36,138 nucleotides of DNA from Promethearchaeati archaeon (GTDB lineage: Archaea; Asgardarchaeota; Heimdallarchaeia; Heimdallarchaeales; Heimdallarchaeaceae), in NCBI GenBank assembly GCA_013166775.1, contig JABLTJ010000033.1:1-36138 (forward strand), given 5' to 3'. Shown here in pieces: positions 12,611 to 23,420 of this stretch. Every line of letters begins with the position of its first letter. The stretch's first letter is position 1. The position numbers and the translations under genes are program-made. Under the pieces are notes generated by a model. That model made no database searches, was not told the origin of the DNA, and saw only the letters and a list, made by a program, of their open reading frames with translations.

Positions 12611-13396
12611 TCAGAGTACTTCTTTAAAGAAATCAATGATGTAATTTTTCATATAATCAAAATCCTCTTGTTTTGAGAAATTATGATTTGCTCCTTCTAC
12701 AATCTTGAAGTCCTTATCCAACTCTGAAGGTATTTTTTCATATAATTTCTGAATCCCTTTTTCGGATAATACTTCATCCTTATTTCCTGTAATTACTCTG
12801 ATTGGAATCTGAAGACTAGATGCTAGTTTCATTGGATTATAGAGTTTTACTTGAGATAAAAATTCCTTCTTCAAGTCTTGCACTTTGGGTATTCTCATTT
12901 GTTTGTCTCTTTGCCATAATTGAGCCATTCCATCAAAGATTTTCAGTTTTGGTATTTTTTCCGTATCGTAAACTGGGGATCGAATAGCTAAGCATTTAAT
13001 TCGTCTATCTCTTACAGAGTGACATAAAGCCATTGCACCCCCAAAACTCTCACCAAATAACCCTATTCTTGATGAATCTATCCTAGGATGTTGAGCTAAA
13101 TCAGTAACAATTCTGTTTATGTTTTCGTGTGAAAAATAGTATTCATATTCCCCTGAGCTAGATCTAACTCCTGTATAATCAAAAGCGAAATAAGCTATCT
13201 TATTATCTGTAAAGCTAGAAGCTATCCTTTCCTTTTCCTTTTTGGGATCAGTTCCAGGCATGCCATTTAATCTGATTATCAAGGGATGTTGTTCTTCTTT
13301 TTTTGGCAAATAAAGATAGCCTTTTATTTTGTCTTCTCGAAATTGTATCTCACGCTTTTCTACTTTCAATTTGCTTACTTCCTTTTTCAATCTCAC
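12611..13396 (-). CDS. Alpha/beta-hydrolase, candidate thioesterase or release enzyme
   Basis: GESFGG nucleophile elbow, Asp in GNKDEV, His in GANHNF. Overlaps the 3' end of the megasynthase; alternative TTG start at 13369. Confidence 0.8.
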   Translation of the reverse strand: MRLKKEVSKLKVEKREIQFREDKIKGYLYLPKKEEQHPLIIRLNGMPGTDPKKEKERIASSFTDNKIAYFAFDYTGVRSSSGEYEYYFSHENINRIVTDLAQHPRIDSSRIGLFGESFGGAMALCHSVRDRRIKCLAIRSPVYDTEKIPKLKIFDGMAQLWQRDKQMRIPKVQDLKKEFLSQVKLYNPMKLASSLQIPIRVITGNKDEVLSEKGIQKLYEKIPSELDKDFKIVEGANHNFSKQEDFDYMKNYIIDFFKEVL

Positions 13397-23000: not shown

Positions 23001-23420
23001 GCTTTCAAAACCTTTTACTAAGAACATATCAGCCCAATCAGATTTCTCGAGCGCTTGTTCAAAATAACTAACTTCAGCTATCAATAATTCACAATCTGTT
23101 GTAAAGGATGATGAAACTTTCTTTTTCAAATCAAATGCAACGATAATAATAGGAATAAAATCAAATTCTTCTAACCAAAGGAACTGGTTTTCATCCTTTA
23201 CTCTTACTCCCCATAGCTTTGAAGAATCCAATTCTGTAAAGCACTTGAGGATCATTTCCTTACTTTGAGATTTTGTTAAACCTTCTAAATCTATTAATCC
23301 AATTCCATTAAGTTTTGAAAGTTCAATGGATAGAGTAGGATCACTTATACCCTTTGGAGAGTAACCCCAAATAGGATATTTTCTTTTAAAAAACTCTTTC
23401 AATTTTTCTTTATTCTTCAT
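13350..23420 (-). CDS. Type I iterative PKS/FAS-like megasynthase (ER'-ER-KS-AT-KS-ACP-ACP-KR-DH-PPTase), ~3356 aa
   Basis: QGPM/EAGGH/AGGI/QMGT (FabK-like ER); DAACASS/EAHGTST/GHLK (KS1); GQGSQ/GHSLG/AFHS (AT); NAACAS/VSHET/GHPMG (KS2); 2x TGY..LGIDT (ACP); TGGGRGI/YSFAN (KR); DHQIENTPIFP (DH); SISHS/GVDIE/WTIKEA (Sfp-type PPTase). ATG 23420 follows a GAGGT SD overlapping the upstream stop. Confidence 0.93.
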   Translation of the reverse strand: MKNKEKLKEFFKRKYPIWGYSPKGISDPTLSIELSKLNGIGLIDLEGLTKSQSKEMILKCFTELDSSKLWGVRVKDENQFLWLEEFDFIPIIIVAFDLKKKVSSSFTTDCELLIAEVSYFEQALEKSDWADMFLVKGFESGGMIGEKSSFILIQQFNESGFPFVIQGGLGVYNIISSLVGGALGVVLEGQLYLLPECPLSNDVKEYISSLEENDTYVIGESFDTKYRLVGKIANQSIREAKKLEKTTPILEKNHFQKIIKQIIGDTTFFNEEEIKHAPIPVGIEITFANFIRDEFRDLKTFLASLAPLFTKQIEGVSKEWPFRKNSEFAKKLGIELPIIQGPMANISDNAEFARLVAENGALPILGLGGLLKEETEELFSQMNKKMPSGKMYGGGIIGLEVMKERREDHITLLQKNKTPICLLAAGTVQLASRIKNLGFTTFLHTPALSLIKDALKNNIEYLILEGSEAGGHIGTQTSFTLWERILQYLTKTRNEIKDKVNIIFAGGIGDEFGSAMLAVMIGSHLDIVSPAIQMGTAYLFTEEIVNSKALTPKYQEKVMDNFSTNVIGATVNTRARVVTTEFVHSTLKKEFERVKEGTPITERKEAYEKDNLGALRIATKAEIWNNDHVPGGDTTQFVHVTPKQQEKLGCFMTGEIAGLKRNIIRIENLHYDIIVASKQLFLSFLPELEAKVDALVFEEDIPETTNLLEIKDRVAIVGLGCIFPDSPNIEAYWQNIVQKVNSITVIPEERWESDLYYDPDPKAVDKTYSKIGAFVKDYEFNSIGYRIPPTIASKMDAVQKWSLDAAKEALEDAGIPTDGKVRLPIAVIVGNAVGGENQRATNRRIFIPEVLKEIRQNQIFNQLAKDEQDEFIKQIRESYSRKFKAITEDTMPGELSNVIAGRIANVFNFTGKSMTTDAACASSVASLDTAIKALITYDFDVALVGGADRSMDPTSFVKFSKIGALSATGSRPFDEKADGFVMGEGAGFLVLKRLEDAIKDGNKIYTVISAIGASSDGKGKGITAPNPEGQKQSILMALNKAKLQSEEIQYIEAHGTSTTVGDAVELKVLEEIFKSDIRKEKIAVGSIKSQIGHLKSAAGIAALIKTSLAIYNKILPPSINVETPNPNIEWKISPLFVNTEPTDWKVNANEIRRAGVSSFGFGGTNYHAILEEFDPVKVEYSHAAKISLSQSFEATPAITQVQEAIDENPICFMFTGQGSQYLGMLKRLYETSKTVADTFEEAEKIWFQHCSFSMKDIVFGSEGLTQEANSQRLTDTKFTQPALFVVDIALFRYMKEQGITPSYVAGHSLGEYSALVAAGVLSFSDGLKAVIARGRSMSDATKETEGAMAAVLAPTEQVEKLVNSIKDEYVIVANYNSTGQTVVSGSVEGIDKIIQKASKMEITSKKLRVSTAFHSKIVKSVEAVMRKVLFDMTFNPPKMNVYSNVTGKKYPSQPDLIQNLLIEQICSSVQWVEEINNIYNDGARIFVEVGPKKALFYFAKDILKSKRDIQVLNTLSPKEKEDEKIAQTIDKIKEIVQSSKIEKTKTAVVSTPRREIMPPSTDMDFNQYLLRNKEHLHDFLKQGYELYSTFMKDEKETISYPTSQLVTSSIGVTGVGIGIPGKSRNVFDDKNIDLLLKGANLIEGISEELKNDILEKNIVRLVKSANGSGSFEHIDDITKVVQLAGQLGKFDPENDFGLNPKLLNALDISFQLAICAGLEALKDAGIPLIRSKKKTSTGKILEGEWELPKSLQDSTGIIFSSAFPGFDNIVKELKQHYTSKEEHQFKREFIFKILSMGHSQFAQLIKAKGPNTQINAACASTTQAIGIAEDWIKIGRCERVIVIAADDAANENLLPWIGAGFLAAGGISTKAKVEEAAIPFGKNRHGLIVGSAAAGYVIEKEEAYQKRGVKPIADIIGTHFANSAFHGARLNVSHITKLFGSFIETIEKEKGISRNDIATEGMFVSHETYTPARGGSAEAEIESLRSVFGSNASKMIIINTKGYTGHPMGAGIEEGLAIKAMEKGFVPPIANINEIDPNFADLNFSRGLEKRLKYAVRLAAGFGSQVAFAAFKLNTYKGRFDSPEYERWLNTIGGKREGIFKDGRVLKLKESPKEELEELLKPRDVLPSVPTSDILTEIISVIAEKTGYESNLIEANMNLEDDLGIDTVKQAEIFGIVREKWNIDLDETVNLADFTTAEKIVEYIHQHTKQTIVTTGIESKKEEIGESNLKTSIKKIISRTTGYEVELIDDDMDLEEDLGIDTIKQAEIFGEIREEFNLPLDESVNLAAFRTINDISEYFTQNISSEASISEIIEQESTQEEVTSAKISKDSVRIEKLVQAPVPMDLENIERIKLSDLSNLIINLNSSFAEKIEKEFTKKKIEFVSHELLKKAPSSLKSNKFDNFILILPDKKTTPGFIDQEYYEKLFSLFQHLDLNSEQKITAISPEKFFGYEEGSYPLSGGISGFIKTLGHEFEIQVKHLYSEKPSEIMKELEFWDTNIEISYSNSIRYTLVPTSIEETISDVSELDIGEKDVLLVTGGGRGITFKCIEAVCEIAKPKVALLGIEDISECSVEDLKLTETELKDRKQKMIEKLRETEEKVTPVMIDKKWNQFIFNLEVLENIQTLEQKGIIATYHRTDVTNKEAVADSIKKIEEEFRSKVTHIVHGAGLEESKQFKKKKFDFSRFIVSVKVEGIWNILDAVDMKKLKRVICFTSIAGRFGNMGQIDYSFANGYLSRLCWMLSQQGIPSLAYDWSAWGDIGMATRGSIMQILESQGIYPIPMTEGIKTFVNLFSNYFSSEVVVSRGLGPFDKLTPHQAKITDVKFPMIDKVEFNKPVFRGDYSITTENDLYMLDHQIENTPIFPGVMGLEIFAEIYSLVSRKKTSTLEDIEFKSAIKQLHNKPKEVYVEYNPITQNLSLKSDFVPKIAEKRIMTTEHFSGRIGNTLKKKRSKKRNLSLNESTIELMTKEEIYSIFFHGNSFQVLEKLIELSGEKAFTKVCIPEEKLFSNLKSMVQIQPRAIEAAFQTAGLYDLIVNQKTSLPSKIKEVAIYSNKTPKYIISEFINKDSTHSFYNVEVIDEEGKVIIRLDQLAMIHTQFSFKGEEDFSDKKNQLREYWEISSNFKGKRMKVVPIKGVTNYLSNEPEEVLKYLSSKEKAAFNRIRNEKRRIEYLSGVIATKELYSEFQEDKDVLKKIEIRKMEKGQPFLFDKEKGKRSNIHLSISHSGDFAVSTLSEKPVGVDIEKIEKRDEGFFKEAFTEEERKIILNDDNLGTIIWTIKEAVSKALGEGLHLSLHDVEIFKEKKSENYRVNFSNNVKETIPYDSSSFKLENQTSTNYSISYCEIEKGSKQIESRKA
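14140..16430 (-). other. KR (structural plus catalytic subdomains) followed by a double-hotdog DH
   Basis: LVTGGGRGIT, VHGAG, FTSIAGRFGNMGQIDYSFAN. DH His at 14856-14858, FHGNSFQ, EAAFQ. Confidence 0.82.
16520..17025 (-). repeat. Two tandem ACP domains, both with Thr at the Ppant site
   Basis: KTGY...LEDDLGIDTVKQAEIFG and TTGY...LEEDLGIDTIKQAEIFG. Confidence 0.85.
17200..18600 (-). other. Ketosynthase domain 2 (divergent, triad intact)
   Basis: Cys 17967-17969, His 17523-17525, His 17403-17405; AAGFGSQ. Confidence 0.8.
18860..19800 (-). other. Acyltransferase (MAT) domain, malonyl-like signature
   Basis: FTGQGSQ, TQPAL, GHSLGEY (Ser 19497-19499), TAFHS, FVEVGP. Confidence 0.9.
19900..21290 (-). 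other. Ketosynthase domain 1 (PfaA-like)
   Basis: Cys 20661-20663, His 20259-20261, His 20142-20144; GVSSFGFGGTNYH. Confidence 0.9.
21400..23400 (-). other. Tandem FabK/nitronate-monooxygenase-like TIM-barrel enoyl reductase domains; first copy degenerate (boundaries approximate)
   Basis: Copy 1: VKGFESGGMIG, IQGGLG. Copy 2: PIIQGPM, LEGSEAGGHIG, FAGGI, IQMGT. Confidence 0.75.

Follow-up and report, generated by a model that had tools for sequence, protein, structure and literature searches.

The stretch of DNA analysed here (the window) is the 36,138-nt contig JABLTJ010000033.1 in assembly GCA_013166775.1 of a Promethearchaeati archaeon, a member of the Heimdallarchaeaceae within the Asgardarchaeota. 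On its minus strand lies a megasynthase gene (13350..23420; ATG at 23420, stop codon at 13350-13352) with a product of 3,356 aa. This one gene encodes all steps of a carrier-protein-dependent fatty-acid-type assembly line together with its own phosphopantetheinyl transferase (PPTase). The uninterrupted minus-strand open reading frame (ORF) spans 13350..23507 and is open back to a TTG at 23507. We regard the ATG at 23420 as the likely start, because a database protein of 3,356 aa is 100% identical to the product read from it, homologues align starting at its Met, and the upstream gene ends at 23431.

To place the domains, Pfam, NCBIfam and family hidden Markov models (HMMs) were combined with two AlphaFold models, which together gave the order ER'-ER-KS-AT-KS2-ACP-ACP-KR-DH-PPTase, i.e., two enoyl reductase (ER) barrels, ketosynthase (KS), acyltransferase (AT), second KS, two acyl carrier proteins (ACPs), ketoreductase (KR), dehydratase (DH) and PPTase. 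Domain limits are given in residues counted from the ATG at 23420 and were placed by HMMs built from the synthase family; all domains are on the minus strand. This order is unchanged in about 50 homologues, in which the number of ACPs ranges from 2 to 5, and is therefore neither chance nor an assembly artefact. The original prediction, made from the letters of the window, had read the same order, and its domain coordinates proved correct when the protein was scanned, in full and in segments, with Pfam and NCBIfam and when the family HMMs were applied. Its ER and PPTase assignments are likewise supported by HMMs (NMO, 60.7 bits; ACPS, 70.2 bits). Motif conservation was read from an alignment of 52 full-length relatives, in which the catalytic motifs are kept in every domain except ER'.

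The first ketosynthase (KS1, residues 712-1191; 19848..21287) is of the polyketide synthase (PKS)/PfaA type with a C-terminal extension, and its Cys-His-His triad, with Cys920 at 20661-20663, is conserved in the relatives. It is followed by the AT (residues 1201-1530; 18831..19820), which scores 236.8 bits with the FabD model and carries GHSLGE and TAFHS, a combination that we take to mark a malonyl-type enzyme; GHSLGE and AFHS are conserved across the alignment. The second ketosynthase (KS2, residues 1602-2040; 17301..18617) is divergent and FabF-like (TIGR03150, 148.6 bits), with Cys1818 at 17967-17969 and conserved triad motifs NAACAS, SHETYTPA and TGHxMG. Since it keeps Cys-His-His, KS2 is not a dead KS of the chain-length factor (CLF) type. 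When we asked whether KS1 and KS2 pair in the manner of KS and CLF, their predicted complex scored 0.28 against a mark of 0.32, which speaks neither for nor against such pairing.

Downstream of the carrier domains, the KR (residues 2330-2770, structural subdomain included; 15111..16433) finds its best model in PfaA (TIGR02813, 146 bits) and has conserved glycine-rich GGGRG, Ser and YxxAN motifs. The DH (residues 2830-3100; 14121..14933) is of the PKS-type double-hotdog kind (PKS_DH_N, 31 bits; PS-DH, 33.6 bits), and its catalytic His, whose motif is conserved in the relatives, sits within LDHQIENTPIFPGV. The FabA model reaches only 14.9 bits and falls inside this same PKS-type DH. At the C-terminus lies a two-lobed PPTase (residues 3140-3347; 13380..14003; ACPS, 70.2 bits; AASDHPPT_N, 29.5 bits), whose conserved motifs GVDIEKI and WTIKEAVSK fit the patterns (V/I)G(V/I)D and WxxKE(A/S)xxK and to which Sfp was matched at E 4e-7; it is an Sfp-type 4'-phosphopantetheinyl transferase by these features. 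The linkers of the 3,356-aa synthase leave no space for a thioesterase domain.

The two carrier domains, ACP1 (residues 2130-2205; 16806..17033) and ACP2 (residues 2225-2300; 16521..16748), read LGIDTV and LGIDTI, with Thr2167 (16920-16922) and Thr2262 (16635-16637) at the phosphopantetheine position. The Ser of the GxDS acceptor motif is thus absent from both. To our knowledge, every characterised carrier protein uses Ser for phosphopantetheine, and we know of no characterised PPTase that modifies Thr efficiently. Taken by itself, Thr at the attachment position of both ACPs would suit an enzyme that is catalytically dead or repurposed, either a relic or a protein with a non-biosynthetic role, but we consider this improbable. 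Thr is the rule, being found in nearly every ACP among about 170 relatives examined (several hundred ACP domains), which include proteins annotated as Desulfoluna butyratoxydans and Lujinxingia vulgaris as well as forms without a fused PPTase, and the catalytic motifs are conserved alongside it. Moreover, tandem arrays of 2 to 8 ACPs all retain LG(I/V)DT, which points to selection on Thr rather than decay. Ser is present in more distant bacterial ER'-ER-KS-AT-ACP-KR(-DH) synthases. Hence, Thr at the attachment site is neither a sequence error nor a local oddity. Since the carriers have Thr, self-activation depends on a PPTase that accepts this residue, which is plausible given its conservation. 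Thr at the carrier site, if modified, would extend the known priming chemistry of carrier proteins.

The N-terminal 700 residues form two related barrels. The ER (residues 321-700; 21321..22460) is a FabK-type flavin mononucleotide (FMN) enoyl reductase and is FabK-like, not PfaD-like: it scores 60.7 bits with Pfam NMO (cut-off 28 bits) and 82 bits with the FabK model versus 23 bits with the PfaD model. Its best structural match is FabK (Z 38, rmsd 2.1 A), followed by PfaD (Z 33) and the ER of fungal fatty acid synthase (FAS; Z 28-32), and the motifs QGPMA, E(A/C)GGH and AGGI are conserved, with His472 at 22005-22007. ER' (residues 1-320; 22461..23420) scores 32.5 bits with NMO and 39 bits with the FabK model (TIGR03151, residues 6-250); for both barrels the FabK score is far under the equivalog cut-off of 453 bits. 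ER' is paralogous to ER (25% identity over 285 residues, E 2e-6), its profile aligns to FabK over its entire length (E 5e-28), and modelled alone (pLDDT 92) it matches FabK with Z 29.2 and rmsd 3.5 A over 305 residues. ER thus has the FabK fold, the QGxMA motif and the His, whereas ER' has the fold alone: it carries PIWGYSPKG where FabK and ER have QGxMA, and the position of the His is taken by Met143 (22992-22994) here and by Met, Lys or Arg among relatives. Judged by these motifs, ER' is probably a non-catalytic, degenerate FabK paralogue.

The 705-residue ER'-ER didomain models as a single body (pLDDT 92.2, pTM 0.93). Because ER domains of polyunsaturated fatty acid (PUFA) synthases act as dimers and two ERs of Schizochytrium (ERb-ERc) heterodimerise (PMC13311796), we propose that ER' takes the place of the second ER subunit within the chain; by this analogy, the usual homodimer contact would have given way to an intramolecular pseudo-dimer. 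In five relatives (P0128, P0160, P0132, P0149 and P0190, two of them labelled Thermoplasmatota), an ER'-like barrel stands alone before KS-AT-KS2-ACPn-KR-DH-PPT; these chains have no catalytic ER, and the barrel reads EGGGR and has no His. Since Thermoplasmatota relatives keep only the ER'-like domain, ER' may have a structural role of its own, as this retention suggests. At E <= 1e-30, the ER'-ER profile found 902 representative clusters; almost all of the top 150 have the didomain at the N-terminus of proteins of 2,000-4,000 aa, and at least several hundred database megasynthases begin with it.

Genes for acyl-CoA carboxylase subunits flank the synthase. The carboxyltransferase gene (23431..25008, minus strand) ends 10 nt upstream of the synthase start, and the biotin carboxyl carrier protein (BCCP; 12090..12608) and biotin carboxylase (10550..12115, the true start probably lying about 60 nt downstream of 10550) are encoded on the plus strand on the other side of the synthase; a BirA-type biotin-protein ligase gene (25128..25856, plus strand) lies beyond the carboxyltransferase. 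An alpha/beta-hydrolase gene (12611..13396, minus strand), whose 5' end overlaps the synthase 3' end, encodes a candidate chain-release enzyme. This cluster was compared in the genomes of five relatives, four of them ER'-bearing (three families, one closed genome) and one of family f2. All four ER'-bearing relatives keep the carboxyltransferase, synthase, hydrolase, BCCP and biotin carboxylase together, three of the four with the biotin ligase as well; the hydrolase directly follows the synthase in three and lies within the cluster in the fourth. In the f2 genome (G054:C7), the synthase is a KS-AT-KS2-ACP5-KR-DH-PPT form without ER'-ER and has three carboxylase genes upstream, and neither hydrolase nor biotin ligase was seen around it. 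A search with the present ER'-ER as query found no homologue elsewhere in five f2 genomes.

Several other features were noted at these loci. In G133:C9, from a relative of the same genus, the region just upstream of the cluster (about 5100-10000 in the joined locus) carries an additional carboxyltransferase gene and an additional biotin carboxylase gene, giving the order carboxyltransferase, biotin carboxylase, carboxyltransferase, synthase. In the window, genes for archaeal Nre and an AlkZ-like DNA glycosylase (7966-10440, plus strand) adjoin the carboxylase genes, and this pair also flanks the cluster of G133. A 444-aa ORF without Pfam match (27764-29098, minus strand) has a purple-acid-phosphatase-like gene on one side and a gene for a class I (Trp/Tyr-type) tRNA synthetase on the other. 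The synthase of the closed genome G026 (C1:482998-498129) appears split over two ORFs of 1,510 and 2,729 aa; KS and PPTase matches recur at this locus, which also includes a PPTase-bearing ORF of 208 aa, and partial duplication, disruption or faulty assembly could account for the pattern.

Most members of the enzyme family are bacterial, the assembly consists of 115 contigs (88.7% complete) with 4.5% estimated contamination, and two near relatives are labelled Zixibacteria and Bathyarchaeia. On these grounds the contig might be taken for bacterial contamination of an archaeal metagenome bin, in which case the gene would say nothing of Asgard biology. This is very unlikely: the archaeal Nre is encoded on the same 36-kb contig, the GC content of the synthase gene resembles that of the surrounding DNA (33% for the window), and the synthase occurs in the same cluster in two single-contig genomes of the family. 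The nearest named homologues come from Heimdallarchaeaceae, and a 95%-identical copy is found in a Candidatus Heimdallarchaeota assembly. Among sampled genomes of the phylum, 36 of 201 have the synthase, including 20 of the 21 other Heimdallarchaeaceae, all seven genomes of the sister family f2 (in a version without ER'-ER) and 3/3 and 2/3 genomes of two further families; it was seen in one of 40 genomes of a large Loki-type family and in none of 43 of another large family. In a KS2 tree built with FastTree, Asgard sequences form their own well-supported clades, with the Heimdall and Loki ER'-ER...PPT forms in one of them. The backbone of this tree has weak support and long-branch joins were flagged, so no donor or direction of transfer is inferred.

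Within the genome (88.7% complete), the only ketoacyl-synt matches and the only PPTase domain found lie in the synthase gene. In the closed genome G074, the PPTase and all strong KS matches are likewise confined to the synthase, the other KS matches being weak and thiolase-sized. Another possible carrier, an 83-aa PP-binding-like ORF (contig C80, L001:5936-6187), was rejected, as its attachment motif DLGMNEDD has no Ser or Thr; it adjoins a luciferase-like monooxygenase gene, and an actin homologue is encoded on the same contig (L001:175-1668). That the sole PPTase is fused into the synthase fits self-activation, and to this extent the original prediction of a self-activating enzyme is supported, the PPTase being fused and the only one found in the genome and in relatives; the part that needs amending is the chemistry, which would require priming of Thr, not Ser.

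From the domain identities, motif conservation, gene context and phyletic pattern described above, we infer that the enzyme is probably an iterative, fully reducing type I fatty-acid-type synthase of the PfaA-related 'secondary lipid synthase' lineage, in which three extra activities have been fused onto a core like that of the Type R synthases discussed below. Its most likely role would be the iterative synthesis of saturated acyl chains. This predicted product follows from the malonyl-type AT, the KR-DH-ER set and the dedicated carboxylase; chains would be saturated rather than polyunsaturated because the KR-DH-ER set is full and there are no FabA-type dehydratase/isomerase domains. In the proposed mechanism, malonyl-CoA would be supplied by the three carboxylase components encoded alongside (biotin carboxylase, BCCP and carboxyltransferase) after biotinylation by the neighbouring ligase, and the AT would load malonyl units onto the two tandem carrier domains. 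The chain would then be extended by the PKS/PfaA-like KS1 and the FabF-like KS2, both catalytically intact by motif. The presence of two intact KS domains suggests a division of labour, and they probably split the work by chain length, or between priming and elongation. Each beta-carbon would be fully reduced by the KR, the PKS-type DH and the FabK-type FMN reductase, with ER', modelled as packed against ER, probably substituting for the second subunit of an ER dimer. The C-terminal Sfp-type PPTase, the sole one in the genome, would prime the carriers, at a site that would have to be Thr, and the overlapping alpha/beta-hydrolase probably releases the acyl chain, a guess from its position, because the hydrolase resembles general esterases.

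The lipid genes of the genome (G000) give this synthesis a possible outlet in PlsY-type acylation. PlsY is present at 181 bits (TIGR00023 cut-off, 137), with four further PlsY-family matches (C73:6581-7189 (L012:6539-7249), C80:29070-29717, C93:24436-25059, C78:59247-59777 and C71:5-481 in all), and the best locus has the order PlsY, a 514-aa ORF without family match, and DegV. There are 15 genes for FakB-like, fatty-acid-binding DegV proteins (e.g., C102:65448-66278, C44:47893-48738 and C73:9059-9910) and two short Dak2-domain genes (C1:227256-227735 and C75:189268-189765), a large fatty-acid-handling repertoire for an archaeon. In the closed genome G074, a PlsY paralogue adjoins the synthase cluster, and, in the phylum as a whole, the families with strong PlsY matches coincide with those that have the synthase. 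Homologues of PlsY and PlsC have been reported in Asgard archaea (PMC6737245, PMC6431249). A PlsX-dependent route was rejected, as the genome, 88.7% complete, yielded no PlsX match. Canonical GGGPS (Pfam PcrB) was found neither in this genome nor in two closed genomes of the family; a strong match occurs in one of 21 other family genomes, and strong matches occur in almost every other Asgard family. CarS is encoded in this genome (G000:C75:149294-149815) and in 19 of the 21 other family genomes, so archaeal-type lipid synthesis is not simply gone, and loss of the whole archaeal lipid pathway was rejected on this evidence.

It is tempting to go further and see in the synthase the primary fatty-acid source of Heimdallarchaeaceae and their sister families, feeding ester-linked or hybrid glycerolipids via PlsY and possibly DegV/Dak2-type fatty-acid kinases. 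We hold this extension to be doubtful; the family-level PlsY and GGGPS patterns involve few independent lineages and are leads, not proof. Several points weigh against the proposed synthesis and its role in lipids. Both carriers have Thr, so that activity would rest on unproven chemistry. The hydrolase is closer to general esterases than to known thioesterases. Relatives of the PfaA type count as 'secondary' lipid synthases and often make specialised products. Neither PlsX nor a PlsC-type acyltransferase was found in this 88.7% complete genome, and with CarS present, archaeal-type lipid synthesis would be possible. In addition, only isoprenoid lipids are known to us from cultured Loki-type Asgard archaea.

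Some of these points would also fit a different product, namely a specialised secondary lipid or a polyketide (for example a long-chain acyl compound with hydroxy, olefinic or other modifications) for signalling, storage or envelope decoration instead of bulk membrane fatty acids. The closest described class is that of 'secondary lipid synthases', with products that are unknown or specialised, and the PKS-type DH, the tandem ACPs and the two KS domains are in keeping with such a product, as are the retention of CarS across the family and the patchy Asgard distribution (36/201 genomes). However, a full KR-DH-ER set with malonyl-CoA supplied by dedicated genes is reminiscent of a primary FAS, nearly all sampled genomes of the family have the gene, which co-occurs at the family level with canonical PlsY, and the window is without tailoring genes such as methyltransferases, P450s or glycosyltransferases. 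We therefore regard a specialised product as possible though rather unlikely, and continue to favour iterative synthesis of saturated acyl chains.

ACP-dependent fatty-acid synthesis is generally held to be absent from archaea, and the origin of fatty-acid ester membranes in eukaryotes, with their Asgard-related host, is an open question. A complete, malonyl-CoA-fed synthase with its own PPTase is a conserved feature of a Heimdall-group family and co-occurs with PlsY where canonical GGGPS is mostly not found; it is relevant to the question of how lipid tails of the bacterial type could arise in relatives of the eukaryotic ancestor. If the synthase were indeed the primary fatty-acid source, these families would be extant archaea that have come part of the way over the 'lipid divide', beside the eukaryotic stem, and the enzyme would carry the first natural threonine-linked phosphopantetheine arm.

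We also compared the synthase with known systems. No paper describing the present Asgard megasynthase was found in the full-text literature searched; subscription journals lie outside that coverage, and an earlier description is possible. The claim that the domain order differs from those of PfaA-E, fungal FAS, enediyne PKS (PKSE) and animal FAS is borne out, and the defining features of a PfaA equivalog, a PKSE and a fungal-type FAS were each looked for in the protein and were absent. Type I FAS of fungi and mycobacteria resembles the synthase in having all activities in cis and an ER that is an FMN TIM barrel from one and the same superfamily (Z 28-33), and fungal FAS also ends in a PPTase. 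Both differ entirely from it, however, in domain order, type of DH, MPT and barrel architecture; fungal FAS is arranged AT-ER-DH-MPT / ACP-KR-KS-PPT and has a triple-hotdog DH. What is shared amounts to an analogy of parts (FMN-barrel ER and cis PPTase), not homology of architecture, and the proposed convergence on the fungal FAS design is not upheld. The enediyne PKSE (KS-AT-ACP-KR-DH-PPTase) also works iteratively as a type I synthase and likewise has a cis PPTase at its C-terminus, following KR-DH, but it has neither an ER nor a second KS, its one ACP carries Ser, and its product is a polyene; nothing here suggests an enediyne cluster.

With FabK and the dimeric ERs of PUFA synthases and trans-AT PKSs, ER and ER' share the FabK fold (Z 38 and Z 29), the difference being that both barrels are on one chain here and that ER' is without the motifs; the Schizochytrium ERb-ERc heterodimer is a precedent for the pairing of two unlike ER barrels (PMC13311796). 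As to the PUFA synthases themselves, PfaA provides the best curated model for KS1-AT and for KR, and in both enzymes tandem ACPs are followed by KR and a PKS-type DH. The whole protein, however, scores 866.3 bits, under the TIGR02813 cut-off of 1010.1; the ER is fused and FabK-like instead of a separate PfaD, an extra KS2 stands between AT and the ACPs, and the ACPs have Thr. Searches of the genome (88.7% complete) and, for KS, also of the closed genome G074 detected neither PfaB and PfaC partners nor FabA-type DH domains. The description of the synthase as Pfa-related thus applies to KS1-AT and KR, which are best on the PfaA model (866 bits), and not to the FabK-like ER and the FabF-like KS2.

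The closest likeness is to the Type R secondary-lipid synthases, which have the order KS-MAT-CLF-ACP(3-6)-KR, a downstream PPTase gene and an uncharacterised product (Shulse & Allen 2011, PLoS One 6:e20146, PMC3098273). Type R clusters occur in Koribacter, Solibacter, Elusimicrobium and Roseiflexus, and the Koribacter cluster has an acetyl-CoA carboxylase gene (PMC3098273). Common to both are the order KS-AT-second KS-tandem ACP-KR(-DH), a dedicated PPTase and, in the case of Koribacter, a linked carboxylase, whose genes flank the synthase here. The present enzyme differs in that ER'-ER is fused N-terminally, the PPTase is fused C-terminally instead of being a separate gene, there are only two ACPs, and the second KS keeps Cys-His-His and is not a strict CLF. 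A search with the KS2-ACP stretch gave over 3,400 protein matches at E <= 1e-30; the majority of those listed are bacterial proteins with the order KS-AT-KS2-ACP5-6-KR-DH and a length of about 3,100 aa, e.g., from Chloroflexota (Oscillochloris, Chloroploca and Caldilinea), and Chloroflexota proteins with this core are 44-47% identical over KS2-ACP. The named Type R members are not among the matches listed, and membership rests on the architecture and on relatives from the same phylum. The domain order matches none of the classes named in the original prediction, but the Type R core has already been described (PMC3098273) and ER'-ER heads many other megasynthases, in a large share of the 902 clusters. 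The synthase is not a new class; it is a fused variant within a large, published and biochemically unstudied one.

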